A stretch of DNA of 64,000 nt from a virus (lineage: Duplodnaviria > Heunggongvirae > Uroviricota > Caudoviricetes). The position numbers and the translations under genes were made by a program. The DNA lies in the IMG/VR virus record IMGVR_UViG_3300033146_005641, positions 119,352-183,351 of that record. One strand, 5' to 3'. Below are positions 10,121-62,575 of this stretch, piece by piece. The notes beneath the pieces are model-generated. The model searched no databases, was not told the origin of the DNA, and saw nothing but the letters and a program-made list of their open reading frames with translations. Position 1 is the first letter of the stretch. Every line of letters begins with the position of its first letter.

Positions 10121-10175
10121 CTTTAAGTCTCTTTATTCTATAATATGTTTTATATAAAGAGAGAAGGATAGAAAG
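10121..10175 (+). promoter_or_regulatory. junction-cassette promoter copy (no upstream FI-tail ORF)
   Basis: CTTTAAGTCTCTTTATTCTATAATATGTTTTATATAAAGAGAGAAGGATAGAAAGATG. Contains TATAAT, then TATATAAAG (T4 late-promoter-like), then the AAGGA RBS. Confidence 0.5.
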
Positions 10176-11862: not shown

Positions 11863-11873
11863 AATGGAGAACC

Positions 11874-34523: not shown

Positions 34524-35261
34524 ATGATAGGAATTGTAGGATTAGGATATGTAGGAAGTGCCGTTTATTCATCTATTAGAAGTAAAGATGATGTTTTAAT
34601 TTATGACGTAAAAGACGATATTAAAACTCACTCTTTAGTAGAACTAAAAAATAATTGTAAAGCAATTTTTGTATGTGTACCAACACCCTCTAAAGACTCA
34701 GGAGAGATTGAGGATAGTATAGTTTTAAATTTATTAGGAGAATTAAAAGATTATGCTAAGAATAATTTAGTTATTCTAAAGAGTACTATTCTATCGAATA
34801 GAATCCCTCGTATTAGAGGTCTTGTTTATAATCCTGAATTTCTTAACGAAAGAACACATATAGAAGATTTTAGGAATCAGGATTATATAGTTCTAGGAGG
34901 TAATATACAAGATACATCTAGAGCTCAAATGATATATGAGGATTATTTTGAATTAGACGATGTTAAATATGAACACTGTTCTATAGAAGAAGCTAGCTTT
35001 TTAAAATATTTTAATAATATATATGGTGCTTATAAAATATTATTCTGGGAGTTTGTACACGATATTACAAGAGATTCTAGAAAGATTAGTCAAATGATGA
35101 GAAATCTTCCAGAACCTAGAATGGATATTGTAGGTTTAGATGGACAGAGAGGATTCGGAGGAGCATGTTTTCCAAAAGATGTAAAAGCTTTTAATTATGA
35201 TTTTGAACATGTTCTAACTAAGTTTATGTTAGAGTACAACTCAAAAATCTCCTCTATTTAG
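34524..35261 (+). CDS. UDP-glucose/GDP-mannose dehydrogenase-family protein, compact
   Basis: IGIVGLGYVGSAV NAD-binding N-terminus, IFVCVPTPS (ICVPTP motif), and catalytic-Cys signature GGACFPKD (compare GGSCFPKD). 245 aa versus ~400 typical. Confidence 0.65.
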   Translation: MIGIVGLGYVGSAVYSSIRSKDDVLIYDVKDDIKTHSLVELKNNCKAIFVCVPTPSKDSGEIEDSIVLNLLGELKDYAKNNLVILKSTILSNRIPRIRGLVYNPEFLNERTHIEDFRNQDYIVLGGNIQDTSRAQMIYEDYFELDDVKYEHCSIEEASFLKYFNNIYGAYKILFWEFVHDITRDSRKISQMMRNLPEPRMDIVGLDGQRGFGGACFPKDVKAFNYDFEHVLTKFMLEYNSKISSI

Positions 35262-37148
35262 TCTATCTATATAGTTCATCTTATCATCCCAATCATTAGA
35301 ATTTCTTATAGCTTCTATGAGGGATGATTTATCATAATAACTATCTTCGCTACCATCATCAAATCCACCAGTACCCTCTAACATAGAATAAAAATCTTCT
35401 ACAGTTACGCCCTCTTCATCATCTTCTAAATCTAATCTCAAAGATCTTAAAAATAAACTTAAATCATCATAAGCTTTTAGATGTAAAAAAGGAGCAAAAG
35501 ATATAGCTAAAGCCATTACCATATCGTCATGATATCCCTCATCTGCTTCAAATTTTTTACCCGATTTATTAATAAAATTATAAAATTCTTTTATGGTATC
35601 TTCATCATTAATAATTAACTTATTTTCTTCTATGAATACTCTCATCATGTTTATAATTGAGGGACGAGATTTAGTAGTAGTTCTAAAGCCCGGATATTTC
35701 TTGTATTTTTTATCTTGAGGATCTCTGTCTCTATATAAATTTTCGTATTCATATTCTCCATACATCATATCGGCTATTGATTGACCCGCTCCTTCATTAT
35801 TTTCTATAATCATAAAAGCTTCATTATAATAATTACCTAATTCATTTAGACTTTCAGGCATCATTAAATAATCTACGTCTAACTTTGCTGACGCTGCTTG
35901 AACAAATGGAAATTTAGTAATATTAATAACTTGAATAGCAAAAGAATCTAATCCGTCTTTTGCAGGATCGACAGCAACTATATAGTGATTTTTTGGTTTT
36001 GGTTCTTCATAAATTTTAATACCGTTTAATACAGTATTTTCTTTAATAGGATTTTTAGCTTCTAATCTTTTTAACGTATCTGAACTTAATAGGGTATCAG
36101 CAGACCCTAAAAATTCATTTTCTTCAGTTTGAGCAAAGAATTTTTCTCCAAATCTTTTAATAGTAATTTCTTTATATTTATCCGGATCTAGAGGATTTCC
36201 TTTTTTATCATAGTGAGGAACCTCCTCCCAGTTATTAGATATTAGTCTATAACCATTATTACCATTTCTAGCACCATCTACAATTTGCTTCCAGTGATTC
36301 ATACCATTAGCAGTACTCGTTAATATAGTTTGTTTAAAGGCTAGTGAGTTCATGGTCGGAAAGATAGAATCTGTAAATTCTTCCCAGTCGTTAAGAGGAA
36401 TATAGGCTGCCTCATCCACATACACAACATTAACAGTAAATCCACGAAAAGCATCGCCCGAAGGTACATCTGTTAATACTCTATTCCTAGATTCAGATTC
36501 TATTTGAGTCTTATTCCATACTTCGATATTAGGCGTCATCCAAATTGGAAGCTCTAATAAAATCTTCTTAAGCTTACCTATAACTTCTTTTGATCCTGAT
36601 GCTTTATTAGCAACAATACCTATCGTAGTAGGGTTATCTCTAAAAGCAAATAACCATAAAAGGTATGTAGAAGTGGAAATGGTTTTTCCAGATTGACGCG
36701 AAAACAGAATAACTAGATCTTCACCATCTTTTAAAGCCTCTTCAAGATCTTTTTGATAGCTTCTTGATTCGGGTCTAGCTAGACCCTCCTTAGTCATAAT
36801 AAAACAGTAATTATATCTAAAATATAAGAAATCTTTCTCACATTTTTCATATTCTATTTTATGGAGAGGTGTCATCTTCATTTCGGTTTTAGGTTTCTTT
36901 AAGGACCTATTTCCATTATATGAAACTGCTCTTCCATATTTATCAACATAATAACCCACTTCGTTTTTAGGAGAGTCTAAAAGATTAAGAAGGCCATCGT
37001 GTTCTTCGTGAGTAAAGGTATAGGTAGATTTTAGAAATTTTTGAAATTTTTCATCTTCGGATAAAATTTCTTGAAGATCTAGGAGAGCCTCTTTATCTTC
37101 TATTTTAGAAAGTTTAGTTAATAATTTTTTATATTTTTTAACATTCAT
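35241..37148 (-). CDS. 17: terminase large subunit (T4 gp17 homolog)
   Basis: Walker A SRQSGKT (T4: SRQLGKT), Walker B YVDEAAYI, nuclease-domain acidic motifs VAVDPAKDGLD. Confidence 0.9.
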   Translation of the reverse strand: MNVKKYKKLLTKLSKIEDKEALLDLQEILSEDEKFQKFLKSTYTFTHEEHDGLLNLLDSPKNEVGYYVDKYGRAVSYNGNRSLKKPKTEMKMTPLHKIEYEKCEKDFLYFRYNYCFIMTKEGLARPESRSYQKDLEEALKDGEDLVILFSRQSGKTISTSTYLLWLFAFRDNPTTIGIVANKASGSKEVIGKLKKILLELPIWMTPNIEVWNKTQIESESRNRVLTDVPSGDAFRGFTVNVVYVDEAAYIPLNDWEEFTDSIFPTMNSLAFKQTILTSTANGMNHWKQIVDGARNGNNGYRLISNNWEEVPHYDKKGNPLDPDKYKEITIKRFGEKFFAQTEENEFLGSADTLLSSDTLKRLEAKNPIKENTVLNGIKIYEEPKPKNHYIVAVDPAKDGLDSFAIQVINITKFPFVQAASAKLDVDYLMMPESLNELGNYYNEAFMIIENNEGAGQSIADMMYGEYEYENLYRDRDPQDKKYKKYPGFRTTTKSRPSIINMMRVFIEENKLIINDEDTIKEFYNFINKSGKKFEADEGYHDDMVMALAISFAPFLHLKAYDDLSLFLRSLRLDLEDDEEGVTVEDFYSMLEGTGGFDDGSEDSYYDKSSLIEAIRNSNDWDDKMNYIDRLNRGDF

Positions 37149-37160
37149 ACAATATTTATA

Positions 37161-37949
37161 TTAATACTGATTTAGGCTAACTCTCGAAAATTCATCTTTT
37201 GATATATGTCCTAGATATTTGTATCCTGCTTTTTCAGTATAGTATCGAGCCATAGAATAGTCATATTGAAATTTATTAGCTTCTATTGAATAAACTCCTA
37301 AAATTTTAAATCTATTCATTACTATTTCATCATGTTTATAATCGGTTTTATTATTCTCTAAAAATTCCTTTATAATATCTATATAAATTTTATTTTGTAA
37401 AAGAGATTCTACGTGTTTTATATAAAAATCTTTAGCTTGTTTCTTTTCTTTAGGTTTTAGTTTTGACCAATAATCACAGATAAATTTCTCATCTATATCT
37501 TCTTGAGTCATCTCGAGATTAAAAGTATTGTTCATATAATTAGCTAGTTTTTTAGAAAAAGCATCCCAAATAAAATTATATTTTTTTCTATTGTTTTGTA
37601 TTGTTTCTAAATTAATCCATCTCATTCCAGATTTATCTAAATGAGTAAAAGCATCCTTTTCCGAATTTAAAACAACATTACCTTCTAATTTTACTAAAAC
37701 ATCCGGTTTTATATTTACATTTTGAATTACCGAACCCATTCCTTTAGAAAACGTACTGATAGATTTTAGACCTTTAATTTTTTTAAGACCTGGAAGATAT
37801 TCTAAAGAAGTAAGATGAAAAGATTCCTGATTTCTTCCTCCTCCAAGAAGCTTAGAAACTGTAGAGGTTAGAGGTAGGAAAGCGTATTCTAAAAGATTAC
37901 AATCTTCTTTATAATGACTTGCTCTCTCAGTAAACAATTCTCTAAACAT
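37161..37949 (-). CDS. hypothetical protein at the position where a terminase small subunit is expected; N-terminus MFRELFTE
   Basis: Immediately upstream of TerL in the same orientation. No TerS motif recognised. Shares the MxFKxLFxE N-terminal family motif. Confidence 0.3.
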   Translation of the reverse strand: MFRELFTERASHYKEDCNLLEYAFLPLTSTVSKLLGGGRNQESFHLTSLEYLPGLKKIKGLKSISTFSKGMGSVIQNVNIKPDVLVKLEGNVVLNSEKDAFTHLDKSGMRWINLETIQNNRKKYNFIWDAFSKKLANYMNNTFNLEMTQEDIDEKFICDYWSKLKPKEKKQAKDFYIKHVESLLQNKIYIDIIKEFLENNKTDYKHDEIVMNRFKILGVYSIEANKFQYDYSMARYYTEKAGYKYLGHISKDEFSRVSLNQY

Positions 37950-37970
37950 CTTTTTCCTTTTGTTTAATTA

Positions 37971-38201
37971 CTATATCCATTCGTAATTATATACAGGACG
38001 CGAATAAGATTTAGTATCTATGTATACTCTCATTTTACCTGCTTTACCTTTAGTCTCATAGGTAAACTCTGGTTCGAAGTCGTCGTCAATATGAATCGGT
38101 AATTTTTTAAGATTATATTTTTTTTTAATCTCTTTCATAAGTTTAATCTCATCAGTCATATCGTCAGATTCAGTAAACAATTTTTTAAAACTTAGCTGCA
38201 T
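37971..38201 (-). CDS. small protein with FKKLFTE N-terminal motif
   Basis: MQLSFKKLFTESDDMTDEIKL... Confidence 0.4.
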   Translation of the reverse strand: MQLSFKKLFTESDDMTDEIKLMKEIKKKYNLKKLPIHIDDDFEPEFTYETKGKAGKMRVYIDTKSYSRPVYNYEWI

Positions 38202-38265
38202 TTTAACCTCTTATATACTTTATTTTATTTATAAATATATTAAATAAATTTAAATAGGCGTAGAA

Positions 38266-38547
38266 ATGAAATTTAAAGAAATGTTTTTAGAAGCTTCTAG
38301 AAAAGGACAAAAATTCCATCCGGTTGATGTATTTCAAGAAAGATGGGTGGTTACAGATGGAGAGGTAATTTTAGGATCTAACGGTGAAATAAAAGACCTA
38401 GCTCAATATAAAAAAGACATGAAAAGTATTAAAAGACATGATCAATATGATGATATTTATTTTCCTACAGAAAAAATGGCTAAAAAATTCTTAAATACTC
38501 TTGCAGACCCTGATGAACTTCACGTAGAGAAATTAAGCTATTATTAG
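38266..38547 (+). CDS. small protein with MKFKEMFLE N-terminal motif
   Basis: 93 aa. Divergent promoter region upstream. Confidence 0.4.
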   Translation: MKFKEMFLEASRKGQKFHPVDVFQERWVVTDGEVILGSNGEIKDLAQYKKDMKSIKRHDQYDDIYFPTEKMAKKFLNTLADPDELHVEKLSYY

Positions 38548-38768
38548 AAATACTGATAGATTCTTTGGAATTAGCGGACAGTCACAAGCTATTGATCCTA
38601 CAGGTCTTCAAAAAGATGTTAGTATTAAAATGTCAGCATATGAGAAAATACTCAAAGAATGGAAGGTAAAAGAATATAAATATATAGATTTATATATTAA
38701 AAGAGTCTTCAAAAAATAATTTGTTTTTAATACGAGTTATTATATAAGAAATATATAAAAGGATAAAA

Positions 38769-39128
38769 ATGTTTAAAAAATTATTTACGGCAGAAAGACT
38801 AGAAAAGTGGATTAGTAGTAATATTAAAAAGTTTCTTATGAAAAATAGTAAAAGAATTGCTAAATTCTTTTTAGATTATGATAAAAAATACGGACAAAAA
38901 ATTCCGGTAGATGTAGAAACAGTGAAGGTATTTAATGGTACTTTAGTTAGTGGATACACTACAGCTATAGTGAAAATATCTAAAGAAAAGGACGAGATTG
39001 TAGGTATTTTCGAGGACGATGATGATATGGATGACGGATTTAGAGCATACTCTAAAATAGAAGAACTTTCAGGCAATATTCCAGTATATTATTTTACTCT
39101 TAGAAAAAGGATAAGAAATGAATTTTAA
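38769..39128 (+). CDS. small protein with MFKKLFTAE N-terminal motif
   Basis: 119 aa. TATATAAAAGGATAAAAATG leader. Confidence 0.4.
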   Translation: MFKKLFTAERLEKWISSNIKKFLMKNSKRIAKFFLDYDKKYGQKIPVDVETVKVFNGTLVSGYTTAIVKISKEKDEIVGIFEDDDDMDDGFRAYSKIEELSGNIPVYYFTLRKRIRNEF

Positions 39129-39342
39129 AGAGCTTTTTTATGAAAACACATCTAAATCTTCAGAATTTAAATTGATTTTAGATAGTGGTGATATTATTAC
39201 ATATTATGATAATGGTAAAGATTGGATGAGATCTTACGGAGACGAGAAACCTCTACAAGCTTTTGATTCTAAAATGTGGAATAAAGAAAAAATTATAAAA
39301 CGAGAATCGAAATATTATAAAATTAAAAAAATCGTAGATTAA
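39118..39342 (+). CDS. small protein with MNFKELFYE N-terminal motif
   Basis: 74 aa. Overlaps the upstream stop. Confidence 0.4.
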   Translation: MNFKELFYENTSKSSEFKLILDSGDIITYYDNGKDWMRSYGDEKPLQAFDSKMWNKEKIIKRESKYYKIKKIVD

Positions 39343-39356
39343 TTCTACGATTTTTA
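39331..39356 (+). terminator. intrinsic terminator: ATCGTAGA TTAAT TCTACGAT followed by TTTTT
   Basis: 8-bp perfect stem, 5-nt loop and T-run, overlapping the stop of 39118..39342. Sits between convergent genes. Confidence 0.6.
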
Positions 39357-39445
39357 ATGAACTTTTAAATATATGCTACTTTCTTTACTTTGCTTTTTTT
39401 TTGTGTAGTTCTAAAATATCAGGTTTAGATAATTTAGGATCCTGC

Positions 39446-39982
39446 TTAAATTTCTAAAAATAACGCTTCTTCAAAGAGAGAAGAATCTCTCCATTGTTCT
39501 AAAACTATACTAGTTCTACCATCTATGTACTCGAAACTTTTTATCAATCCGTCATTAATAGACTCTAGATCTTCTGAATTTTCTATAATTCGGTTATCGT
39601 ATTTTAATTTTATATATCCTGTATTTAAAGCCTTCTTAATAGCTTTTATGTTATATTTATTCATTTGAAAGTCTTCTACTACTCTAAAATTTAACTTTAA
39701 TAGAGTATAGATGATTTTGCCTAATAAATGTTTTTCATTAGACAGATTTTCTCTAGTCATCAATATGAAGAGTTTCTTTCTTTTATTAAACTGGACTAAT
39801 ATATAAAATAATAATTTATTGTTTCTATATAATAAGAGAAAATATTCATTATTTATTTTAGATAAATGGAGTTCTAATCCATTTTTCTTATATAATAACT
39901 TATCTTTTTTAAATGGTAAACCTCTTAAAGAATTTATTTCTTTATTATTAAAGACGACTTCGGTAAAAATATTTTTAAACAT
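39446..39982 (-). CDS. protein with MFKNIFTE N-terminal motif
   Basis: 178-aa ORF, minus strand, convergent with the 39118 gene. Confidence 0.4.
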   Translation of the reverse strand: MFKNIFTEVVFNNKEINSLRGLPFKKDKLLYKKNGLELHLSKINNEYFLLLYRNNKLLFYILVQFNKRKKLFILMTRENLSNEKHLLGKIIYTLLKLNFRVVEDFQMNKYNIKAIKKALNTGYIKLKYDNRIIENSEDLESINDGLIKSFEYIDGRTSIVLEQWRDSSLFEEALFLEI

Positions 39983-40054
39983 ATTATTTTATACTATTAT
40001 ATATTAAATCATCAAAATATTTTTTGATTTCTTTAAATATCTCCTTAAACGTTT

Positions 40055-41557
40055 CTATCTTTTATAAGCTTCTAGATAATCGTTATAAAACTTCCATACA
40101 CATTTCGGAGTGTTTTTTTTGAAATATTCATAATCTTCGAGATTCTCAATTATTTTAGTAGCTGAAATATCATCTGTTCTAGGAATTTCATATACATCCA
40201 TTCCATAATTTTTCTCAAGCATTTTCCTATAACCATCAACTCTATCAGAGCTCGTTATAATAGTAGTAATCTCATTTTTAGATTTTCTCATTATAGTAAA
40301 TATATTTCCTGTACTAGAATTGAGTATCTCAATCTCAGGAAAACAGCCTCCCATAATATTATTTCTAAGGACTTTTGTTCCTTTAGTTTCTTTAGAACTT
40401 ACTATATTAACGGTTACAGTATCGTATTTAGCAACTGCTTCTCTAATCATATCATAGTGAGCTTTTGTAAGTATTTTAAATTTTCCTAAAATTAGAGCAC
40501 CACTAGCAACATCTTTAGATAGTCTCATTCTAAATGCTAATGCTATATCGTCTTTTATTTGTTCTTTAGATTTTTTAATATGTTCAATATCTATTTTAGC
40601 TTTCTTAAGCTTTTTATTGAATTCTATAACAGCATCGGCAAAATTAGATTTATCTATTCCTTTTTGGAAAGTATCGATAAGCTTGTTGATTTTTTTATAA
40701 TACTCATCTTCATAAGCCTGATCTCCTCTAAACTGAGCTTTAATTTTATCGCGAGCTATTTGGTCGGTTTGATATGATTGTTGAAGCTTAATTAGTTTAT
40801 CATTAAACTTTATTACAACGCCTTCTTCTTTTCCTCCGTACTTTGACTCTACATCTAAAAACATCTGGGATATTTTTTCGATGATATCTTCTTTAGAATC
40901 CCAATTAATATCTACTCCGCGGTAAATTTTTTTAAGCTCGTCGTCTTGAATTCCGACATTAAAATCTTTTCTATTACCTAGAACACCCCTAAATAAAATT
41001 GCAGGAACATCTAATCTCATTTCATTAGCATATTCTTTTCTTTTTTCTGTGAAAAATCCTGAAGGTTTAGTAAATAATTTACCGTTTTTTTCGGTCCAAG
41101 TACTCTTAGAATATCCTATTAAAACCATTCCATGTTTTTTAGTATAATTAGAAGATAGAGTAGGTTTTCTCATAAGAAACTCAACAAATAATTCAGTACC
41201 TTTAGGAATAGAGTTCTTCCTTAGTTTTCTTAAATGATCCCAGACAAACGCAAATTGAGAATTTCCTATACTTTTAGATTTTATTTTAGCTTTAGAGAGA
41301 TAATCAAATTCGTTAGGATATATTATATCGCTTTTATAGGCGACAATATAGTCTTTTTCCGCCACTCCAGAATTATCCTTCTTAACGATAGTAACCTTTA
41401 CTCCATCAGTCTTATGTTCTACCGTTACTTGAGAAGTAAGAAATTCTTCTTTTTTAGTATCATTAGTAAGGAACTTTTTAGCATTTTGAATACTAATATC
41501 TAATTGGTTCTTTCCTTCTAAGAGATACTTCTTAAAACCCTTTGTCATACCTAACAT
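40055..41557 (-). CDS. two-domain protein: N-terminal ligase-like KxDG nucleotidyltransferase module plus C-terminal HxGH/ISST-type (NMNAT/cytidylyltransferase-like) module
   Basis: N-terminal VEHKTDGVKV (compare Rnl1 motif I KEDGSL). C-terminal GKFKILTKAHYDMI (variant of the GxFxxxHxGH motif) and DDISATKII (the ISSTxIR motif). Confidence 0.35.
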   Translation of the reverse strand: MLGMTKGFKKYLLEGKNQLDISIQNAKKFLTNDTKKEEFLTSQVTVEHKTDGVKVTIVKKDNSGVAEKDYIVAYKSDIIYPNEFDYLSKAKIKSKSIGNSQFAFVWDHLRKLRKNSIPKGTELFVEFLMRKPTLSSNYTKKHGMVLIGYSKSTWTEKNGKLFTKPSGFFTEKRKEYANEMRLDVPAILFRGVLGNRKDFNVGIQDDELKKIYRGVDINWDSKEDIIEKISQMFLDVESKYGGKEEGVVIKFNDKLIKLQQSYQTDQIARDKIKAQFRGDQAYEDEYYKKINKLIDTFQKGIDKSNFADAVIEFNKKLKKAKIDIEHIKKSKEQIKDDIALAFRMRLSKDVASGALILGKFKILTKAHYDMIREAVAKYDTVTVNIVSSKETKGTKVLRNNIMGGCFPEIEILNSSTGNIFTIMRKSKNEITTIITSSDRVDGYRKMLEKNYGMDVYEIPRTDDISATKIIENLEDYEYFKKNTPKCVWKFYNDYLEAYKR

Positions 41558-41880
41558 TAAATTTTGTCCTTCTCTTCTTCCGGTTTCTCTTCTGGTTCTG
41601 CACGAGCAGGTAATACGTCAAAACCTAGAGTATCTAGTTCATCGCCTCCTGAGCTATCAAACTTCTTCAAGTTGAGAGTATAGGCGTTATCTCCTACAGT
41701 AATATCGTACGTTTTTACTATATCTCCCTCCATATTCATGTTTTCTATATGTTTGAAGCTATATAAATCTTTTCCGTATTTATTTTCCATCCATTTTAGA
41801 GCATCTTTTACTGCTTTATCTAAATTGAATTCTTCTGTTATTTTTTTTCTAAAAGAGGAAAATTTTATCATCTTGTTCAC
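41557..41880 (-). CDS. hypothetical acidic protein
   Basis: 107 aa. C-terminus PARAEPEEKPEEEKDKI. Confidence 0.35.
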   Translation of the reverse strand: MNKMIKFSSFRKKITEEFNLDKAVKDALKWMENKYGKDLYSFKHIENMNMEGDIVKTYDITVGDNAYTLNLKKFDSSGGDELDTLGFDVLPARAEPEEKPEEEKDKI

Positions 41881-41938
41881 CCTATAAGGTTTATTTTGTT
41901 AAATTATTTATATAACTTCAAACTCCGAGGAGTTTGAA

Positions 41939-42277
41939 TTATGAGGTTCTAACGTCTTTTACACGAATTCCGTCGATTCTATCAGCAGTAGTCATCAAAT
42001 AATAGTCACCGTTTTCCTCTTTTTTAACCATTCCTAAATCAAAAGAGTTTTGAGGCGGAAAATAAACGATATTTCCAATTTCTACCCCCTCTGCTTCGGG
42101 ACCTCTAGAAACAACTTCTCCATAATATGGTCTATCTGCTACACCTCCTTGCTTTACAGCTAATACAATACCGGAATCAGACATTAATTTTGTTTCGTCT
42201 ACTGGCGAAACCCTTATTACGATAATATTAGATTGTGGTGCAAACTCCCACCAATTTATCCATCCATTATTTTCCAT
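41939..42277 (-). CDS. GroES-like co-chaperonin (T4 gp31 analog)
   Basis: IVIRVSPVDETKLMSDSGIVLAVKQ...GEVVSRGPEA...VEIGNIVYF...DYYLMTTADRIDGI parallels GroES [61 protein letters not shown]. Confidence 0.55.
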   Translation of the reverse strand: MENNGWINWWEFAPQSNIIVIRVSPVDETKLMSDSGIVLAVKQGGVADRPYYGEVVSRGPEAEGVEIGNIVYFPPQNSFDLGMVKKEENGDYYLMTTADRIDGIRVKDVRTS

Positions 42278-42362
42278 TAATTGCCTTTATTTTAATTTAA
42301 ACATATTATATTATAATTAACTTAAAACATTATAAATAACCTATAATAAAAAAAGGAAGAAA

Positions 42363-43013
42363 ATGGCAGTAAGATTTTCAATAAGAAACGGTCAAGCAAC
42401 ACCTTCAGTAAGCGACTTAGAGCTTTTAGAGCTAGGTGCTGATGTAACAGATGCTAATAACCCTAGAATATATACTAAGACCTCGTCAGGAATTCATCCT
42501 ATTGGTGTAGGAGACGCCCTATCTTTAGGAGAGGTGTTACCTGAAAATTATGCTAGAACAGACATTAATGAGACGTTTGAACAAAATGTAACAGTTAACG
42601 GAACTCTTGATGCTACAGCCGAAAGAGCAAAATATGCCGATATTGCCGAGTACTACGAATGTGATAAAGAATACGAAGCCGGCGATATTTTAATGGTTGG
42701 TGAAGAAACAGAGGCTATTTTAGCTGATGGTTCTAAGATGATTATGGGGGTATGTTCTACAGCTCCTGCATATTTAATGAATACTAAAATTCAAGAAGAT
42801 GAAGAAGTAGAACATTATGCGCCTCTAGCTCTTAAAGGAAGAATTCCGGTTAAAATTACAGGTTCTGCAAAAAGAGGTGATTATATTATCCTAGATGTTA
42901 AAAATCCAGGAAAAGGAAGAGCCGTCAAAACGTATCCTAAAACTGAGGCTGAAAAATTATTTATTGGTGTTTGTGTAACGCCTGGTAAAAAGACTTGTGA
43001 AGTGAGGGTTTAA
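42363..43013 (+). CDS. hypothetical protein
   Basis: 216 aa. Divergently transcribed from the GroES-like gene. Confidence 0.4.
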   Translation: MAVRFSIRNGQATPSVSDLELLELGADVTDANNPRIYTKTSSGIHPIGVGDALSLGEVLPENYARTDINETFEQNVTVNGTLDATAERAKYADIAEYYECDKEYEAGDILMVGEETEAILADGSKMIMGVCSTAPAYLMNTKIQEDEEVEHYAPLALKGRIPVKITGSAKRGDYIILDVKNPGKGRAVKTYPKTEAEKLFIGVCVTPGKKTCEVRV

Positions 43014-43016
43014 AAA

Positions 43017-43472
43017 ATGTTTAAAAAATTGTTTATAGAAGACACAAAAAAGAAAAAAATTAACAGCAAATCTCTTAGTACCATGATGAAAAAATATAAA
43101 TTCTCACATAAAACGGTTACTGTATGGAGAAGAACTAATTTTGGATATACTAATATAGCTATAGCTCTCAATAAAGATGTATGGTTATATTATAGAGGTT
43201 CTAAAAATTCTATATCTATCGAATATAATAGTGAAAAATATTTAGTAGATGAGTCTAAACCTGATTTCAAAATGGCTGAATATCCTCACAGCGTAGGTCA
43301 TACAGAAGGATGGAAAGGTTTTAAAGTATCGCCAAGATCTTCTTTTTGGAGCTCTTTAATGAATTTTATAAACGATATTTTAGAAAATAACATTTCAGGT
43401 CCGCATTATATAGACAATAAGTTACAAAACGGATACGAACAATCGTCTAAATATCCTGATATGAGTTTTTAA
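43017..43472 (+). CDS. protein with MFKKLFIE N-terminal motif
   Basis: 151 aa. Confidence 0.4.
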   Translation: MFKKLFIEDTKKKKINSKSLSTMMKKYKFSHKTVTVWRRTNFGYTNIAIALNKDVWLYYRGSKNSISIEYNSEKYLVDESKPDFKMAEYPHSVGHTEGWKGFKVSPRSSFWSSLMNFINDILENNISGPHYIDNKLQNGYEQSSKYPDMSF

Positions 43473-43518: not shown

Positions 43519-44649
43519 ATGTCTCAATGTCAGAATACTCGTAATGACGACTCGATTCACGTAGACATTAATACTACATCGATATGTAATATAGCGTGTA
43601 CATATTGTTCAGAAGGTAATGAGTGCGGTCTAAGTTCTTTATATCTTAAAAATACTCAAATAAAAGTAGAAGATTTAATTAATAAACTTAATAAAGATCC
43701 TGCAAAAGGTAAAACTATTAATTTTTGGGGCGGAGAACCTTTCATCAATTTCGACTTTTGTAGGACTATTATAGAGGAATTTAAAAAAGACCCCTCATTT
43801 TCTTTTTTCTTCTATACTAACGGAATTTTAGTTCCACAATATATAAAAATCTTAAAACAATGGAATGAGGAATTCGGAAAAGAAAAGGGATATGACGGGC
43901 AGCCCAGACTAATCATTCAGATTTCTTATGATGGAAAATGGTTAACAGATAACATTAGAATTGATAAAACAGGTAAGGGTACGTCCGAAAGAGTAGAAAA
44001 GGCTTTTAAACTATTAAAAGAAAATAATATAGAAACATCTCTAAAATCTGTTATATCTTCTGACGGATTTTCACATCTTTTTGAAAGTTATAGAGATTGT
44101 ATGGAGCTACAAGAGTTTTATAATCCTACTCCCGATTTATGGTCAGATAGAACAGAAGAAGAATTTGCCGAAGATTTAAAAATACTTGAAAAAGAATTAG
44201 AAAGGATTGCTTCATATATTGTCGCTAATAATTTAAAACCTGACTCTTTTTCTTGGTTTGGAATGTCTCGAGCTATTTGTTCAGTGGGTTCTAATATGAT
44301 TTCTGTAGATTTAGACGGAAAACTATATCCTTGTCACGCAGGAATGTATGGAGAAAGGATTGAACATGTTATGGGTCATATAGATAATTTTACAGAAGTA
44401 AAAGAGAGAGCTATGGAGGCGTTTAGAAAAATTAATTCTCATTTACCTGAAGAATGTCAAAAATGTGATGTTAATTTTTGTATGAAGTGTCAAATGGCTA
44501 ATTTTTCAAAATCAGCAGAACTAGATTACGCTAAAAAATTTACGGACTATCAAGCTAATTGGCAGGTGTGTAGATTATTTAAAGTAAATGACAAGTATAA
44601 TAAAATTGTTCAATTTATGAGTCAGAATCCGGAAGAGTTAAATATATGA
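43519..44649 (+). CDS. radical SAM enzyme with SPASM domain
   Basis: CNIACTYCSE, GGEPFI, C-terminal multi-Cys CQKCDVNFCMKCQMANF plus upstream CSVGS...C...CHAG. Confidence 0.75.
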   Translation: MSQCQNTRNDDSIHVDINTTSICNIACTYCSEGNECGLSSLYLKNTQIKVEDLINKLNKDPAKGKTINFWGGEPFINFDFCRTIIEEFKKDPSFSFFFYTNGILVPQYIKILKQWNEEFGKEKGYDGQPRLIIQISYDGKWLTDNIRIDKTGKGTSERVEKAFKLLKENNIETSLKSVISSDGFSHLFESYRDCMELQEFYNPTPDLWSDRTEEEFAEDLKILEKELERIASYIVANNLKPDSFSWFGMSRAICSVGSNMISVDLDGKLYPCHAGMYGERIEHVMGHIDNFTEVKERAMEAFRKINSHLPEECQKCDVNFCMKCQMANFSKSAELDYAKKFTDYQANWQVCRLFKVNDKYNKIVQFMSQNPEELNI

Positions 44650-44684: not shown

Positions 44685-45791
44685 ATGGCTGTTTTTGATA
44701 CGTTTACGTTAGAATTAAAAATTTCAGATCAATGTTCTATGAGATGTCCGTATTGTTATGAAACTTTTACAGATACATATATGACTAAAGAAACTTTTGA
44801 TAGGTCTCTAGTAAAAGTAATAGATATGATGGGGAGATCAGAAACTAAAAAACTTAATTTAAGTTTTTTTGGTGGAGAACCTATGATGAATTGGGAGCTA
44901 ATAGAACATGCTACAAAAGTTCTTAGAAAGCTACCCATAGAGGTTACTTTAGTAGTTATATCTAATATGACTCTTATAGATGAATATAAAGTTAAATGGT
45001 TAAAAGAGAATAATGTGGGGGTATCTTGGTCATTCGATGGAATATCTTCTAATGAAACCAGACCTCTAGCTACCCAATTTATAAATCCAAAAGCAGACGG
45101 AACATCTTATAAAAGTACCCTAGATTTATATAAAGATAAGATAGATCTAATATTGTCTCTTACGAATGGGTGTAAGGTTATGGTGTGGCCAGGTAATTCT
45201 AAACAAATGACAGAGAATTTAGAATTTTTTGTAGATAGTGGAATTATAGCACCCGATTTTTCTTTGATAAGAGATGATGTATGGTCTAAAGAAGATATTA
45301 TTAATTTTAGAGATGATATTAGAAGATTAGGTGATAGATATATTAAATATATAAAAGACGAGGTTTACGTAAATGTTGGTTTCTTTACACTTTGTATTCT
45401 TGATAATATATTTGGATTAACCTTTCAAAAAAGATCTTTCGGGTGTTTTGCAGGTACTACAGGTGCAGTAATGACGACAGATGGAAAATTTTATCCTTGT
45501 GCTAGATTTTCAGATAAAAAAGTTATGGAAATTACACCAGAATATTCTTTTACCTACTGGCAAGAAAAGTTTAAGCCTGAAAACTATGATAAGTGTCAGT
45601 CTTGTGATTTATATGATGTTTGTAATGCAGGGTGTTTATATTCTCAAATTAGAAATAATAATAAACCTTTAGATAGTATATGTGAGCTATATCATATTAT
45701 ACAAGAGGAAACGCAAAGAGTGGTTCACGAATTAAAAGACGAACCAACGTTTCATCAAGTAATAAATAACATTTTTAAAAATATAGGATAG
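44685..45791 (+). CDS. radical SAM enzyme with SPASM domain (anSME-like)
   Basis: CSMRCPYCYE, FGGEPMM, C-terminal CQSCDLYDVCNAGC. Overall layout like anaerobic sulfatase-maturating enzymes. Confidence 0.75.
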   Translation: MAVFDTFTLELKISDQCSMRCPYCYETFTDTYMTKETFDRSLVKVIDMMGRSETKKLNLSFFGGEPMMNWELIEHATKVLRKLPIEVTLVVISNMTLIDEYKVKWLKENNVGVSWSFDGISSNETRPLATQFINPKADGTSYKSTLDLYKDKIDLILSLTNGCKVMVWPGNSKQMTENLEFFVDSGIIAPDFSLIRDDVWSKEDIINFRDDIRRLGDRYIKYIKDEVYVNVGFFTLCILDNIFGLTFQKRSFGCFAGTTGAVMTTDGKFYPCARFSDKKVMEITPEYSFTYWQEKFKPENYDKCQSCDLYDVCNAGCLYSQIRNNNKPLDSICELYHIIQEETQRVVHELKDEPTFHQVINNIFKNIG

Positions 45792-45795: not shown

Positions 45796-46020
45796 ATGAG
45801 TTGTGAAATAGGATATGAAAATATAAGTATAGAAGAGTTAGAGAAACAATTAGACGATGCTAAGAAATCTTTAGTAGATAAAAAATATAAAAATTATGAT
45901 TCTCCAGAACATCTATTTAATTATAATATAAATTTCGATAGGTTTTTAGTAGATATGTCTTATATATTAGAGAAAGCTAAAAATGTGGAGAGCATTGATG
46001 ATAGATATAGAATGGCTTAA
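45796..46020 (+). CDS. small acidic protein
   Basis: 74 aa. Overlaps the next ORF. Confidence 0.3.
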   Translation: MSCEIGYENISIEELEKQLDDAKKSLVDKKYKNYDSPEHLFNYNINFDRFLVDMSYILEKAKNVESIDDRYRMA

Positions 46021-46768
46021 AAAATTATTTAGAAATATTTTACGGATTGAAGGTGATATATCTGGAGAGTGGATGTTTGTTATTTTTAATGATTTTTATA
46101 TGAGACATTTATGGTATAATAAATTCAAAAAAATAGATAGATGTTTTAGAAGATGGAAAAAAGTTTGTAAAGATCCTAAGCTAGAAACAGAATGGAATAA
46201 ACCCGAAATTAACGAAGCTTTAGAAGCGGTTCAAAAGTCTTATGATGAGGGTATAGGCTATTTGTATAAATTCGATGAGGAGGATTTAGCTGAATTTATC
46301 TATCCTAAAGCCAAGAGAGATCTTTTGGTAAATGCAAAACTGGTATATTTCTCAAAACAAGATTCTAGGGATATAGAATTCTTAAAAGAAAATATAATAG
46401 AGATTTATAACGAAAAAAATAAATATTTAAGTAGAATAACTTTATTGTATAACTATATAATTAGAATAAAAGATGAACTGTACGGAGACATATATAATGA
46501 GGTGATTAATTCTAATACTAGGTTTACCTTTCAATTAATATGGCTAACACAGAAAACTCTACATCCTCAAGACTATAAGAGAATATTAAAGAAGGTTTTT
46601 AAAAACACCTCTCAGTCCGAACAAAAATTAATAAAAATGTTTTTAGAGTCCAGAATAGGTAAATATAAAGATAATCCTAGATTTTTAAAGGCTAGAGATC
46701 TTGATTCAGAGAAAAGAGAAATAGCTAAAGAATTAATAGAAGAAATTTGGACTAAGCATGGAAGATAA
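45998..46768 (+). CDS. hypothetical protein
   Basis: Start placed at the ATG at 45998, 5 nt after GGAGAG. The ORF track starts at 45983. Confidence 0.4.
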   Translation: MIDIEWLKKLFRNILRIEGDISGEWMFVIFNDFYMRHLWYNKFKKIDRCFRRWKKVCKDPKLETEWNKPEINEALEAVQKSYDEGIGYLYKFDEEDLAEFIYPKAKRDLLVNAKLVYFSKQDSRDIEFLKENIIEIYNEKNKYLSRITLLYNYIIRIKDELYGDIYNEVINSNTRFTFQLIWLTQKTLHPQDYKRILKKVFKNTSQSEQKLIKMFLESRIGKYKDNPRFLKARDLDSEKREIAKELIEEIWTKHGR

Positions 46769-47606
46769 CCTTAGAACTAATGTAGTATTTTTTACTACTA
46801 CGTGTAATTTAGCCTGTACATATTGTTATCAACACGTAAAAGACTATCCTCATAAAGAAACTTCTAAAGAAGAACTTATAGAAATAGTAGACAGAACAGT
46901 AGAAAGAGAGGGGACTGATTCTCAAACTCTATTCATTCTGTTTGGAGGAGAGCCTACTACAAGATGGGAAAATGTAGAGTTTTTTATGGATTATGCATAT
47001 TTTATTAAGGAAAATGTACAGTTTAATATAGTTACTAATGGAATAAAGTTTAAAGATGACAGATTCTTGAAAAAATTTATATCTAATACTCACTATAAGG
47101 AGGGTAGACTTAAGCTAGAAATAAGTTTTGACGGTATCGAAGGAAATTCTGAAAGAATATATCCGAATGGTAAAGATTCTACAAAAGATGTAGTAGAAGT
47201 ATTATTTAAATTAAAAGAGACAAATACTAAATATAGAATAAGATATACAGTACATAAGAAAAATGTTAAAAACTTTGAAAACGATATTCTAAAGATAATG
47301 AAATACTTTAAACCTGAAAGATTAATTTTAAGCGAGTACGAAGATGATCTATCTTCAGATGAGTTAAAATATGTAGAGAATATTAAGAATATCTTAATCA
47401 AAAAATATTATAATAATGAAATAAACATACCAATATGTATGAAATATGATGAAATGTGTGCTGTGTGTGGTAAATGCGGAAATAAACATATTGAGGATTT
47501 TTCTGTAAATTTAGGAAGTAGTTTTTCAGTACAGAAAAAAATAACATTCGATACGTTCGACATGTTTAATAAATTAGCAAAAAATAAGGATAAAAATGAA
47601 AAATAA
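46758..47606 (+). CDS. radical SAM enzyme with C-terminal Cys cluster
   Basis: CNLACTYCYQ, FGGEPTT, C-terminal CMKYDEMCAVCGKCGN. Confidence 0.75.
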   Translation: MEDNLRTNVVFFTTTCNLACTYCYQHVKDYPHKETSKEELIEIVDRTVEREGTDSQTLFILFGGEPTTRWENVEFFMDYAYFIKENVQFNIVTNGIKFKDDRFLKKFISNTHYKEGRLKLEISFDGIEGNSERIYPNGKDSTKDVVEVLFKLKETNTKYRIRYTVHKKNVKNFENDILKIMKYFKPERLILSEYEDDLSSDELKYVENIKNILIKKYYNNEINIPICMKYDEMCAVCGKCGNKHIEDFSVNLGSSFSVQKKITFDTFDMFNKLAKNKDKNEK

Positions 47607-50290: not shown

Positions 50291-50980
50291 ATGAGGTTTA
50301 GAGACACTAAATATGGCGATTTAACAGGACAAACCTATGAAGGAGATATTGATGTAAGTGGTTTAAACTTAACATCTCTAGAGGGTGCTCCAGAGGTAGT
50401 TAAAGAAGGATTTTACTGTAATGATAATCAATTAACTTCTCTAGAGGGTGCTCCTAAGGTAGTCGACGGTAGTTTTTATTGCTATGATAATCAATTAACC
50501 TCTCTAGAGGGTGCTCCTAAGGTAGTTAGAGGAGATTTTGATTGTTATAATAATAAACTAACTTCTCTAGAAGGGGCTCCTGAGGTAGTTAAAGAAGGAT
50601 TTTACTGTAATGAAAACAGTCTAACTTCTCTAGAGGGTGCTCCTGAGGTAATCGGTGGTAATTTTAATTGCACTTACAACAATTTAACTACTCTAGAAGG
50701 AGCTCCAGAGACAGTTGGTGGTAGTTTTAATTGCTCTAAAAATAATCTAACTTCTCTAGAAGGTGCTCCAGAGGTAGTTAATGGTAATTTTAATTGTTAT
50801 AATAATAAACTTACTTCTCTAGAAGGCGCTCCTGAGAGAGTTAGAAGAGATTTTGATTGTTCAGAAAACGATCTAACTTCTCTAGAGGGATTACCTTTTT
50901 CTAGAGAAATAAGGTCCGATTTTGATGAAAGAGAGATTAATGATTATATTAAAGATAGATTTCCCTATCGTTTTATATGA
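50291..50980 (+). CDS. LTSLEGAP 21-aa repeat protein (paralog)
   Basis: MRFRDTKYGDLTGQTYEGDIDVSGLNLTSLEGAPE..., C-terminal ...RFPYRFI. Confidence 0.7.
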   Translation: MRFRDTKYGDLTGQTYEGDIDVSGLNLTSLEGAPEVVKEGFYCNDNQLTSLEGAPKVVDGSFYCYDNQLTSLEGAPKVVRGDFDCYNNKLTSLEGAPEVVKEGFYCNENSLTSLEGAPEVIGGNFNCTYNNLTTLEGAPETVGGSFNCSKNNLTSLEGAPEVVNGNFNCYNNKLTSLEGAPERVRRDFDCSENDLTSLEGLPFSREIRSDFDEREINDYIKDRFPYRFI

Positions 50981-51033: not shown

Positions 51034-51912
51034 ATGAAGTTTAGAGATACTAAATATGGCGATTTAACAGGACAACCTTATGAAGGTGATGTTGATGTAA
51101 GTGGTTTAAACTTAACATCTCTAGAGGGTGCTCCTGAGGCGGTCGATGGAGATTTTAATTGTTCTAGTAACAATCTAACCTCTCTAGAGGGTACTCCTAA
51201 GGTAGTTGAAGGAGATTTTTACTGCTCTCACAACAATTTAACTTCTCTAGAAGGAGCTCCTGAGATAGTTAATGGTAATTTTAATTGCACTTACAACAAT
51301 TTAGCCTCTCTAGAAGGGGCTCCGGAGGTAATAGATGGTAGTTTTTACTGCTATGATAATCAATTAACTTCTCTAGAAGGGGCTCCTAAGGCAGTTAAAG
51401 GAGATTTTGATTGTTATAATAATAAACTTACTTCTCTAGAAGGTGCTCCAGAGGTAGTTAAAGAAGGATTTTACTGTAATGAAAACGGTCTAACCTCTTT
51501 AGAAGGAGCTCCAGAGATAGTTGATGGTAGTTTTTACTGCTATGATAATCGATTAACCTCTCTAGAAGGAGCTCCTGAGGTAGTCGGTGGTAATTTTAAT
51601 TGCTCTAAAAACAATCTAGCTTCTCTAGAAGGAGCTCCTAAGGTAGTTAATAATAATTTTGATTGCTCTAAAAATAATCTAGTCTCTCTAGAAGGATCTC
51701 CTGAGGTAGTCGGTGGTAGTTTTTACTGCTATGATAATCGATTATCTTCTCTAGAAGGTGCTCCTAAGATAGTTAAAGAAGGGTTTCACTGTAATAAAAA
51801 CAATCTAACTTCTCTAGAGGGAATACCCTATTCTAAAGGAATAATAGCTGATTTTAGTAAACTAGAAGTTAATGATTACCTAAAATCTAAATTTCCTTAT
51901 CATTTTATCTGA
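51034..51912 (+). CDS. LTSLEGAP 21-aa repeat protein (paralog)
   Basis: MKFRDTKYGDLTGQPYEGDVDVSGLNLTSLEGAPE..., C-terminal ...KFPYHFI. Confidence 0.7.
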   Translation: MKFRDTKYGDLTGQPYEGDVDVSGLNLTSLEGAPEAVDGDFNCSSNNLTSLEGTPKVVEGDFYCSHNNLTSLEGAPEIVNGNFNCTYNNLASLEGAPEVIDGSFYCYDNQLTSLEGAPKAVKGDFDCYNNKLTSLEGAPEVVKEGFYCNENGLTSLEGAPEIVDGSFYCYDNRLTSLEGAPEVVGGNFNCSKNNLASLEGAPKVVNNNFDCSKNNLVSLEGSPEVVGGSFYCYDNRLSSLEGAPKIVKEGFHCNKNNLTSLEGIPYSKGIIADFSKLEVNDYLKSKFPYHFI

Positions 51913-51961: not shown

Positions 51962-53029
51962 ATGACGTTTAAAGATACTAAGTATGGTGATTTAACAGGA
52001 CAAACCTATAAAGGTGATATTAATGTATGTGGTTTAGATTTAACCTCTCTAGAAGGGGCTCCAGAGGTAGTTGATGGTAGTTTTTACTGCTATGATAATC
52101 AACTAACCTCTCTAGAAGGATCTCCTGAGGTAGTCGATGGTAATTTTTACTGTTATGATAATCAATTAACTTCTCTAGAAGGGGCTCCAGAGGTAGTTGA
52201 TGGTAATTTTTATTGTCATAATAATCAATTGACTTCTCTAGAAGGATCTCCGGAGGTAGTCAGCGGTATTTTTTATTGTTATAATAATAGACTTACTTCT
52301 CTAGAGGGGTCTCCTAAGATAGTTAAAGGAGATTTTTATTGCTCTTACAACAATTTAACTTCTCTAGAGGGGGTTCCGGAGGTAGTTGATGGTAGTTTTT
52401 ATTGCTATGATAATCGATTATCCTCTCTAGAAGGAGCTCCTAGGATAATCGATGGTAATTTTTATTGTTATAATAATCGACTAATTTCTCTAGAAGGTGC
52501 TCCAGAGGCAGTTGATGGTAATTTTTATTGTTATAATAATCGATTAACTTCTCTAGAAGGCTCTCCAGAGGTAGTCGACGATAATTTTGATTGTTCAGAA
52601 AATGATCTAGCTTCTCTAGAAGGGTCTCCTAGAGTAGTTAATAATAATTTTGATTGCTCTAAAAATAATCTAGTCTCTCTAGAAGGATCTCCTGAGGTAG
52701 TTAGAGGATATTTTGATTGTTCAAACAATCAACTAACTTCTCTAGAGGGAGCTCCAGAGATAGTTAAAGAAGGCTTTTACTGTAATAAAAACGATCTAGT
52801 TTCCCTAGAGGGGGCTCCTGAGGTAGTCGATGGTAATTTTAATTGTGCTAAAAATAATCTAACTACGCTAGAAGGGGCTCCTAAGGTAGTTGATGGTAAT
52901 TTTTACTGCTATGATAATCGATTAACTTCTCTAGAGGGATTACCTTTTTCTAGAGAAATAAGGTCTGATTTTAGTAAACTAGAAGTTAATGATTACTTAA
53001 AATCTAAATTCCCTTATCATTTTATCTGA
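51962..53029 (+). CDS. LTSLEGAP 21-aa repeat protein (paralog, longest)
   Basis: MTFKDTKYGDLTGQTYKGDINVCGLDLTSLEGAPE..., C-terminal ...KFPYHFI. Confidence 0.7.
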   Translation: MTFKDTKYGDLTGQTYKGDINVCGLDLTSLEGAPEVVDGSFYCYDNQLTSLEGSPEVVDGNFYCYDNQLTSLEGAPEVVDGNFYCHNNQLTSLEGSPEVVSGIFYCYNNRLTSLEGSPKIVKGDFYCSYNNLTSLEGVPEVVDGSFYCYDNRLSSLEGAPRIIDGNFYCYNNRLISLEGAPEAVDGNFYCYNNRLTSLEGSPEVVDDNFDCSENDLASLEGSPRVVNNNFDCSKNNLVSLEGSPEVVRGYFDCSNNQLTSLEGAPEIVKEGFYCNKNDLVSLEGAPEVVDGNFNCAKNNLTTLEGAPKVVDGNFYCYDNRLTSLEGLPFSREIRSDFSKLEVNDYLKSKFPYHFI

Positions 53030-62526: not shown

Positions 62527-62575
62527 TTTTAGGTTATTTTATTCTATAATATATTATATAAAGAAGGATATAAAG
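62509..62575 (+). promoter_or_regulatory. junction cassette
   Basis: CCTCAATATTTTATCTAATTTTAGGTTATTTTATTCTATAATATATTATATAAAGAAGGATATAAAGATG. Confidence 0.5.

Follow-up and report, generated by a model that had tools for sequence, protein, structure and literature searches.

We analyzed a window of 64,000 nucleotides (nt) of DNA from a tailed phage (Caudoviricetes; IMG/VR record IMGVR_UViG_3300033146_005641, positions 119,352 to 183,351) in which at least seven unrelated small proteins carry an eight-residue N-terminal tag, Met-Phe-Lys-x-Leu-Phe-x-Glu, referred to here as the leader. Sequence comparisons indicated that this shared N terminus is probably a capsid-targeting propeptide of the phage T4 type, carried by putatively late-expressed accessory proteins whose genes turn over rapidly. 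An initial annotation of the window had likened the motif to the T4 capsid-targeting sequence (CTS), and each computational test that was able to contradict this reading came out in its favor.

When the expression ^M.{0,4}F[KR].[LIMV]F.{1,2}E was run on all Met-started open reading frames (ORFs) of at least 40 amino acids (aa) in six frames of the window, exactly seven ORFs matched, and no other ORF of the 64 kb did. These were the seven ORFs listed by the initial annotation, whose positions, N termini, and sizes (74 to 262 aa) were all correct; the list was incomplete, however, in that a 500-aa ORF that also carries the leader had been overlooked. The members, together with a possible ninth member and the terminase gene that anchors the comparison with relatives, are as follows (window coordinates).

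35241-37148, minus strand: large terminase (TerL), 635 aa, T4 type
37161-37949, minus strand: leader ORF A, 262 aa, MFRELFTE followed by RAS; the best-conserved member
37971-38201, minus strand: leader ORF B, 76 aa, MQLSFKKLFTE followed by SDD; T4 late-promoter box TATAAATA 24 nt upstream
38266-38547, plus strand: leader ORF C, 93 aa, MKFKEMFLE followed by AS; late-promoter box 28 nt upstream
38769-39128, plus strand: leader ORF D, 119 aa, MFKKLFTAE followed by R; one additional residue before the Glu
39118-39342, plus strand: leader ORF E, 74 aa, MNFKELFYE followed by N
39446-39982, minus strand: leader ORF F, 178 aa, MFKNIFTE followed by V
40055-41557, minus strand: eighth member, 500 aa, PHROG 27149; N terminus MLGMTKGFKKYLLE followed by GKNQLDISI
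41557-41880, minus strand: possible ninth member, 107 aa, partial motif SFRKKITEE and acidic C terminus
43017-43472, plus strand: leader ORF G, 151 aa, MFKKLFIE followed by D; 3' of a fibre-like late gene

The leader ORFs had been placed around the terminase; all of them in fact lie on one side of that gene. The Phe and the terminal Glu were invariant in the seven ORFs. The core motif occurred seven times at N termini (within the first six residues) and never internally in the 20,136 residues of 90 non-overlapping genes; the composition-based expectation for N-terminal positions was 0.013 (P ~1e-16, a value that is optimistic because the expression was devised after the data were seen). An outside control of 1,376 genes, drawn from 80 gp21-bearing loci of related phages and from Campylobacter phage CJLB-13, contained no match, compared to 7 of 87 window genes (Fisher P = 2e-9). 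Exact DNA patterns for MFKKLFTE and MFKELFTE were found in only five IMG/VR contigs in total, all from low-GC phages. Beyond the leader the proteins were unrelated, as the annotation had stated: pairwise BLASTP of the seven sequences minus their first 14 residues gave no similarity at E<0.01, and none of the seven ORFs had a match in Pfam or PHROG. A looser N-terminal expression was dropped as uninformative after it matched 23 of the 254 genes of CJLB-13, including obvious non-head genes. A clamp-binding or secretion-signal reading was also dropped, given that the motif is N-terminal, charged, insufficiently hydrophobic, and Glu-ending.

The window has a GC content of approximately 28%, and its TerL was most similar to those of Vibrio phage phiKT1024 (43% identity) and Campylobacter phage CC_R7 (42%), followed by other Firehammervirus sequences at about 38 to 41%. 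Together with homologues of gp15, gp32, UvsW- and Dda-type helicases, RnlA, and a GroES/gp31-like protein, these similarities place the window in the T4 superfamily, on a little-sampled branch. Its relatives used for comparison were L010 (JGI Ga0256837_1000497; TerL 97% identical to that of the window), L001/L002 (IMG/VR 3300003873_000009; TerL 77% identical), L011 (a close relative but a short fragment), and a relative of 41% GC, L024, in which nine leader genes stand in a row.

T4 internal proteins and their CTS were reportedly treated by Mullaney and Black in 1996. Read from the T4 genome (NC_000866), the N termini are MKTYQEFIAE followed by A in IPII and IPIII, MKTFKEFTS...ITE followed by A in IPI, MELITELFDE in Alt, MLKEQLIAE in gp22, MNEPQLLIE in gp21, and MAKINELLRE in gp24; gp23 is cut at SFLTE, ahead of AEIGG. 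In IPIII, packaging requires the first ten residues only; residues 4 and 7 act in targeting, residues 8 and 10 are required for processing, and an Asp at position 10 leaves targeting intact while blocking processing (PMC9026906). When the leader was set against this sequence, its Phe fell on Tyr4 (P7), its Leu on Phe7 (P4), its second Phe on Ile8 (P3), and its Glu on Glu10 (P1). In the six window ORFs with standard spacing, P7 was invariably Phe, P4 was Leu, Ile, or Met, and P3 was Phe; in ORF D the register is displaced by one, with a TAE ending and Thr at P3, and Glu is kept at P1. Since P7, P4, P3, and P1 are the positions that are conserved here, the conserved positions are those mapped functionally in T4, and in the same register. 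A pooled table of 31 leaders from the window and relatives (P4, 16 Leu, 6 Tyr, 5 Ile, and 2 Phe; P3, 21 Phe, 5 Leu, 4 Ile, and 1 Tyr) is descriptive only and not independent evidence, because the selecting expression fixes P7 and P1 and restricts P4 and P3. On these grounds the leader appears to be a member of the CTS class, on proteins that are themselves not homologues of the T4 internal proteins; mature parts compared with Pfam, PHROG, NCBIfam, and Protein Data Bank (PDB) sequences gave no match, and thus no homology to T4 internal proteins or Alt was detected.

If the leader functions as the CTS does, transcription of the leader genes would occur late, alongside that of the structural genes. 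With its aromatic P7 and hydrophobic P4 and P3, the amphipathic leader would then bind a gp22-type scaffolding core during prohead assembly, so that the attached protein would be enclosed; a gp21-family prohead protease would cut after the Glu (hydrophobic-x-Glu), freeing the mature protein inside the head, and this protein would exit with the DNA at the next infection. Core binding, cleavage after the Glu, virion presence, and injection are all inferred steps of this scheme. Should the leader alone be needed for loading, any gene that acquired it would become a gene for a packaged protein, and the cluster between the terminase and the 500-aa gene could for that reason turn over quickly by deletion, insertion, and replacement. 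A gp21-family protease and a gp22-type scaffold are core genes in T4-related phages, and T-even relatives encode additional proteins with CTS-like sequences (PMC9026906).

Expression of the leader genes was considered by way of the T4 late-promoter box TATAAATA. This box was depleted in the window, with 13 observed versus 31 +/- 5 expected from shuffles, and it seems to be avoided except where it is used, as in T4. Six of the 13 boxes lay within 37.1 to 42.4 kb (P ~1e-3), and five stood 24 to 86 nt upstream of units containing leader genes or the possible 107-aa member, namely, B then A; C; D then E (86 nt upstream of D); the 107-aa ORF then the 500-aa gene; and a fibre-like gene then G. The boxes and two neighboring genes are as follows.

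38226-38237, both strands: two overlapping divergent late-promoter boxes, TATAAATA on each strand, facing B (with A behind it) and C
38675-38682, plus strand: late-promoter box upstream of ORFs D and E
41905-41912, minus strand: late-promoter box upstream of the 107-aa ORF and the 500-aa leader gene
41939-42277, minus strand: GroES/gp31-like co-chaperonin (PHROG 3188, E 7e-5; PHROG 931, head morphogenesis, E 2.5e-4)
42331-42338, plus strand: late-promoter box upstream of the fibre-like gene and ORF G
42363-43013: fibre-like gene, first gene of a two-gene unit with ORF G

Two other boxes of the window stand ahead of tail genes. Among the relatives, the box was found before leader ORFs of L010, L001, L024, and two further phages, L021 (IMG/VR 3300028534_000122) and L019; in addition, L019 has it before its scaffold, capsid, and tail-tube genes, and L021 before its capsid gene. 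This distribution of consensus boxes fits co-expression of the putative cargo alongside prohead components. Separately, only 4 nt separate a TATAAATA box at 37153-37160 from the annotated terminase ATG that follows it, an arrangement conserved in three relatives (also at L010 9989 and L024 17461); either TerL truly starts further downstream or its mRNA has almost no 5' untranslated leader.

In two relatives, leader ORFs were found within head modules. L021 encodes MLKFKKIYEE (77 aa, acidic), MFKELFTE (89 aa, homologous to a 95-aa protein of L001), and MFKETFHE (125 aa); immediately downstream of these ORFs come a T4_CASP scaffold gene (E 1e-20) and gp23 (E 2e-83). L019 encodes MKFKEYLNE (121 aa) approximately 0.7 kb upstream of gp21, with one or two small ORFs between, and MNFKDFINE directly after gp23. 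A gp21 profile scan of IMG/VR gave five contigs from the two metagenomes that had yielded the lineage contigs. Two of these, L103 and L095 (GC 27 to 28%, from the metagenome of L001), have scaffold genes that adjoin gp21 and the major capsid protein; the scaffolds start MKLEKLFE and MKIDKLFE, each followed by S, and gp21 starts MKLIYE or MKLLYD. The maturation site of the L103 capsid protein is probably VLAE followed by GTVSSDVAQFSP. Just as the T4 CTS (…EFIAE) resembles the N terminus of gp22 (…QLIAE), the leader (…KLFTE) resembles the scaffold N terminus (…KLFE). A leader on the gp21 of the lineage was also considered and rejected: the best 120 gp21 homologues start ...KLLYEY..., similar only at the last 4 to 5 positions (K-L-L-Y-E).

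One leader family could be connected to virion data from an isolated phage. By tblastn, the homologue of a 396-aa leader protein of L010 and L001 in Campylobacter phage IBB_35 is gene 1-56 (HM246720.1 39251-40417, 44.4 kDa), which was among 38 proteins detected in purified virions by electrospray ionization tandem mass spectrometry (ESI-MS/MS), with 17% coverage (PMC3322345, Tables S1 and S2). This detection shows association with the virion and not location in the head or processing. A 223-aa Campylobacter phage protein, MMKFSDFLEE, was not placed in that proteome, as the coordinates of the IBB_35 virion table disagreed with the GenBank record; its gene adjoins one matched by size to baseplate gp6, and it may be a tail part.

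Several results weigh against capsid targeting. No gp20, gp21, gp22, gp23, or gp24 was found in the 64-kb window by tblastn with T4, Campylobacter phage, and L019 head proteins; the terminase and the GroES/gp31-like gene support the annotation's description of a locus beside head-morphogenesis genes, but no other head gene adjoins it. The contigs bearing gp21, scaffold, and capsid genes (for example, L103) may come from a different phage than the lineage contigs. The 80 gp21 neighborhoods contained no strict and two loose leader matches, and leader genes are thus not generally linked to the protease gene. In Campylobacter phages the homologue of the 396-aa protein adjoins tail genes and could be a tail component, and the IBB_35 authors saw no obvious size shift (PMC3322345), although a gel would not reveal a loss of 10 residues. 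At P3, Phe predominates here, compared to Leu or Ile in the T4 consensus; ORF D has its additional residue before the Glu; and the leader in a homologue of ORF A at 31% identity ends in Asp. Finally, packaging of a 500-aa enzyme-like protein would be unusual, but there is a precedent in T4 Alt, a packaged ADP-ribosyltransferase of 682 aa with an N-terminal propeptide.

We considered the possibility that the leader is a signal at the protein level that has nothing to do with head packaging, such as a degron for a host or phage protease, an autoinhibitory propeptide that is taken off elsewhere, or a peptide that docks with a chaperone or with components of replication or transcription. Many docking roles could be served by a short, amphipathic helix at the N terminus that, as modeled for ORF A, lies disordered beside the fold; moreover, some carriers look like enzymes, and the packaging evidence for this phage comes from sequence and not from proteomics. 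Such a signal would nevertheless leave unexplained the position-by-position match to the mapped T4 CTS, the invariant terminal Glu that is the hallmark of gp21-family cleavage, the likeness to the scaffold N termini of the sister contigs, the late-promoter context common to leader and structural genes, and the presence of leader ORFs inside the head modules of L021 and L019. We regard it as unlikely.

Alternatively, the leader proteins might be structural or assembly parts of the prohead core, comparable to T4 gp67 and gp68, that are degraded at maturation and are not cargo. The leader ORFs of L021 and L019 do stand close to the scaffold, gp21, and capsid genes, in positions like those of gp67 and gp68, the 77-aa MLKFKKIYEE protein of L021 is highly acidic like gp67, the 107-aa ORF at 41557-41880 has an acidic tail, and T4 core proteins also start with [LI]-x-E peptides. 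Core parts, however, would be expected to be conserved, whereas phages with 91% identical DNA differ in whether they have most of the window members; the members are mutually unrelated, and the carriers of 262, 396, 411, and 500 aa with folded domains look like cargo. As an account of the whole set this explanation is improbable, though it may hold for a minority of members, which would use the same targeting and cleavage mechanism as a cargo protein.

The capsid-targeting reading received further support from families in which the leader appears to be a detachable module. Homologues of the 396-aa protein (PHROG 19290, E 1e-76) occur in Campylobacter, Vibrio, and Xanthomonas phages, and the mature part begins GGN(T/V) in all homologues compared. 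The residues preceding this GGN are MKFKEYIQIVE in L010, MEFREYLKVMRINE in L001, MKLSELMFILE in Campylobacter phage CP220, and SFKDFKKKNMNE in L024, whereas the homologue in Vibrio phage phiKT1024 starts M-GGNVSV, with no room for a leader upstream. The same pattern was observed in the 500-aa family. Among the best 150 representatives from a HMMER scan, to which no filter for leader residues was applied, about 30 begin M-LDISI, about 20 more have a few residues before this point, and approximately 25 to 30 have an extension (for example, MNFKELLE, MNFRNYLTE, MKSFKTFITE, MKLTFKEYLTE, MEFKDFILFE, and MKTFKQFFE) that mostly conforms to F-[KRS]-x-[FY]-[LIV]. One of these, MKSFKTFITE followed by A, is very near the T4 sequence MKTYQEFIAE followed by A. 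In closer relatives, FKKYLLE (L010), KQFKRYILE (L001, after a longer extension), and SFKQYISE (L024) each stand directly before xKGQLDISI. In two leader families, then, homologues from other phages begin precisely at the leader's end. As a separate observation, a GFKK[FY]L peptide recurs in several places: within the leader of the 500-aa window protein (GFKKYLLE), at the C terminus of the acidic 77-aa leader protein of L021 (7475-7708; …EEGFKKFLK), and at the N terminus of a 61-aa protein of Vibrio phage phiKT1024 (L013 11928-12113; MSKRGFKKFLEEE).

The leader is constrained as a peptide. In a codon comparison of 33 leader-like ORFs collected by regular expression from the window and relatives (two of which look spurious), Leu was encoded by TTG, TTA, CTT, CTA, and CTC, Thr by ACT, ACA, ACG, and ACC, Glu by GAA and GAG, Lys by AAA and AAG, Arg by AGA and AGG, and Phe by TTT and TTC. 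The 80 nt upstream of the seven starts were dissimilar save for a Shine-Dalgarno-like AGGA or AAAGG a few bases before the ATG; no conserved promoter-plus-stem-loop flank was found across these 80-nt regions, some of which contain late-promoter boxes. The synonymous variation, the retained spacing of Phe and Glu, the dissimilar upstream DNA, and the persistence of the leader in the relative of 41% GC together place the constraint on the peptide and not on an RNA or DNA element. It is accordingly very improbable that the shared peptide is a by-product of a 5' nucleic acid element, whether a translational operator or enhancer (a RegA-type site or downstream box) or a recombination linker for exchanging cassettes in the manner of the T4-type promoter-stem-loop cassettes: the motif does use the commonest codons of a 28% GC genome (TTT, AAA, TTA/TTG, and GAA), and the locus is a recombination hot spot with one breakpoint at the 5' end of ORF B, but synonymous sites vary freely while the amino acids are fixed, the gap from ATG to Phe ranges over 0 to 4 codons with the register to Glu retained, the upstream DNA is not shared beyond the Shine-Dalgarno-like bases, the leader is kept with other codons at 41% GC and is recognizable in orthologues down to 31% identity, and the motif is absent both internally and from the 1,376 control genes of similar composition. 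Short shared DNA may also promote illegitimate recombination as a side effect.

The hypervariability that had been proposed for the locus was borne out by blastn against L010. Shared segments of the window and L010 were 80 to 98% identical in DNA, mostly about 90 to 93%, but the gene content of the cluster differed: whole leader genes have been gained or lost between phages of about 91% identity, and remnants were left behind. L010 contains leader genes of 396 aa (MKFKEYIQIVE followed by GGNTT), 411 aa (MSFYELFVE), and 289 aa (MSFLKLFTE), as well as a 116-aa leaderless gene, that have no counterpart in the window; conversely, ORFs F and G are present in the window only, compared to L010 and L001. 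In the place of ORF F, L010 has the 289-aa and 411-aa leader genes. ORF G is a clean insertion of approximately 450 nt, found in neither L010 nor L001, and the 5' end of ORF B is a rearrangement breakpoint relative to L010. L001 has further members, two that start MFKKLFTE (95 and 88 aa) and one of 408 aa that starts MFYNLFVE. Two remnants document recent deletion or replacement.

38554-38731, plus strand: gene remnant, the 3' end of the 396-aa PHROG 19290 leader gene that is intact in L010 and L001 (blastn against L010)
39397-39444: gene remnant, a non-coding fragment of the 411-aa gene, which L010 retains whole

Among the members that are shared, leaders were maintained. ORF B orthologues start MFKELFTE in L010 and MFKKLFTE in L001, the leaders of ORFs C and E are identical in their L010 orthologues, and ORF D corresponds to MFKELFTVE in L010. 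ORF A adjoins the terminase gene in the window, L010, and L001, and it and its orthologues start MFRELFTE, MFKELFTE, or MTFKQLFTE, each followed by RAS. Only ten homologues of ORF A were found among 5.8 billion proteins; members as distant as 58% identity have an intact leader with its Glu, and one at 31% identity has a Glu-less variant of it, MISFKDYVKD. An AlphaFold2 (AF2) model of ORF A from an 11-sequence alignment had a mean predicted local distance difference test score (pLDDT) of 79.5 and a predicted template-modeling score (pTM) of 0.76, with residues 1 to 12 below 50 and predicted to form a free helix outside the fold.

The closest known counterparts are IPI, IPII, and IPIII of T4. 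As in that system, an extreme N-terminal leader of about 8 to 10 residues is common to otherwise unrelated small proteins, an aromatic residue stands seven positions before the terminal Glu with hydrophobic residues at P4 and P3, the loci are polymorphic and belong to a T4-type genome, and leader and scaffold N terminus of a lineage are alike. The differences are that the mature parts lack homology, the consensus is F-K-x-L-F-T-E here compared to Y-Q-E-F-I-A-E in T4, there are more carriers per locus (at least 8 in the window and 9 in a row in L024), the system is known from sequence alone, and TerL identity to the nearest isolates is only about 43%. T-even internal proteins are themselves a diverse set with the CTS alone in common (PMC3012670). 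In the giant phages phiKZ, 201phi2-1, and SPN3US, ejection or inner-body proteins are processed by gp21-like proteases (PMC5694885, PMC9026906). There too, many head-internal proteins are cut after Glu, and the propeptides are thought to target the prohead; these propeptides, however, are mostly 80 to 130 residues long and end in S/A-x-E, in contrast to 8 to 14 residues and a hydrophobic P3 here, as in T4. The hyperplastic regions of T4-type genomes likewise hold clusters of small orphan genes that vary between near-identical phages by insertion, deletion, and replacement (PMC2839356), but where promoter-stem-loop cassettes share flanking DNA, what the genes here have in common is the peptide with which their coding sequences begin, conserved at the amino acid level.

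The concept of a capsid-targeting leader is already established for T-even phages, and what is added here is a new phage lineage; the gain is in breadth and in a handle for metagenome searches and not in principle. If the leader works as in T4, the expression M-x0-4-F-[KR]-x-[LIYF]-[FLI]-x-E would flag candidate injected proteins, which act ahead of any phage gene expression, in uncultured T4-like phages. The lineage and its relatives contain about 15 or more unrelated leader-tagged families, which would amount to a concrete list of candidates for anti-defence or take-over factors, and the leader would be a second, divergent targeting peptide for engineered delivery of proteins in phage heads. 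The large enzyme-like proteins that occur in leader-bearing and leaderless versions constitute a natural experiment. We tentatively suggest, with doubt outweighing confidence, that the leader is a general, portable loading code of non-T-even T4-like phages that can be read from sequence, by which whole enzymes, and not small inhibitors alone, are packaged and injected before gene expression. The nucleotidyltransferase-like 500-aa protein of PHROG 27149 and ORF A, a candidate ADP-ribosyltransferase-like protein, would then be examples of cargo, and gain or loss of the leader on the same enzyme would mark lineages that need the activity pre-loaded, for example, to pre-empt host defenses.

The injected proteins of T4 include the restriction inhibitor IPI and the host RNA polymerase modifier Alt. 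By analogy with these two alone, anti-defence or host take-over would be the likely class for the mature proteins of the cluster, with any anti-defence role a guess. The anti-defence role that had been proposed for them was not supported by the sequences, as the mature parts have no informative homology. In hhalign comparisons of ORF A with Alt and ModB, the probability was below 1%. ORF A forms a set of distant paralogues with the 289-aa L010 protein and a 252-aa protein from L024, and the 500-aa protein has a weak adenylyl/cytidylyl-transferase signature at its C terminus. Two leaderless genes were observed in the plastic region of leader genes in a further relative, L023 (Logan SRR24742790_6155): a 74-aa gene at 1753-1977 with a weak Acb2/Tad1-hairpin Pfam match and a 241-aa Anti-Pycsar Apyc1 gene at 11532-12257.

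Membership of the 107-aa ORF in the leader set is uncertain. Its partial motif has Lys in place of the hydrophobic P4; it has a TATAAATA box 24 nt upstream and is kept beside the GroES/gp31-like gene, with the same layout in L010, L001, L023, and L024. A 261-aa protein at 45983-46768 was excluded from the set: the L002 orthologue (9949-10701) starts MNFKNIFRIE, which is leader-like with longer spacing, but in the window copy, which reads MWRALMIDIEWLKKLFRNILRIE, no start codon yields a clean leader, and this copy is either a decayed member or one with a mis-set start. Several radical-SAM genes (11874-12875, 43519-44649, 44685-45791, and 46758-47606) and a long block of genes at 23.8 to 35.2 kb that appear by eye to be related to sugars or nucleotide sugars hint at DNA or surface-glycan modification chemistry near the leader cluster. 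A separate family of paralogues was found at 10176-10802, 50291-50980, 51034-51912, 51962-53029, and 62498-63391 and in an ORF that runs off the right end (approximately 63.4 to 64.0 kb). These proteins have a conserved N terminus of their own, M[RKT]F[RK]DTKYGDLTGQTYEG.I.V, followed by tandem repeats of about 22 residues (NNLTSLEGAPxxVxGxFxC) that are leucine-rich-repeat-like and match PHROGs 7816 and 21719.

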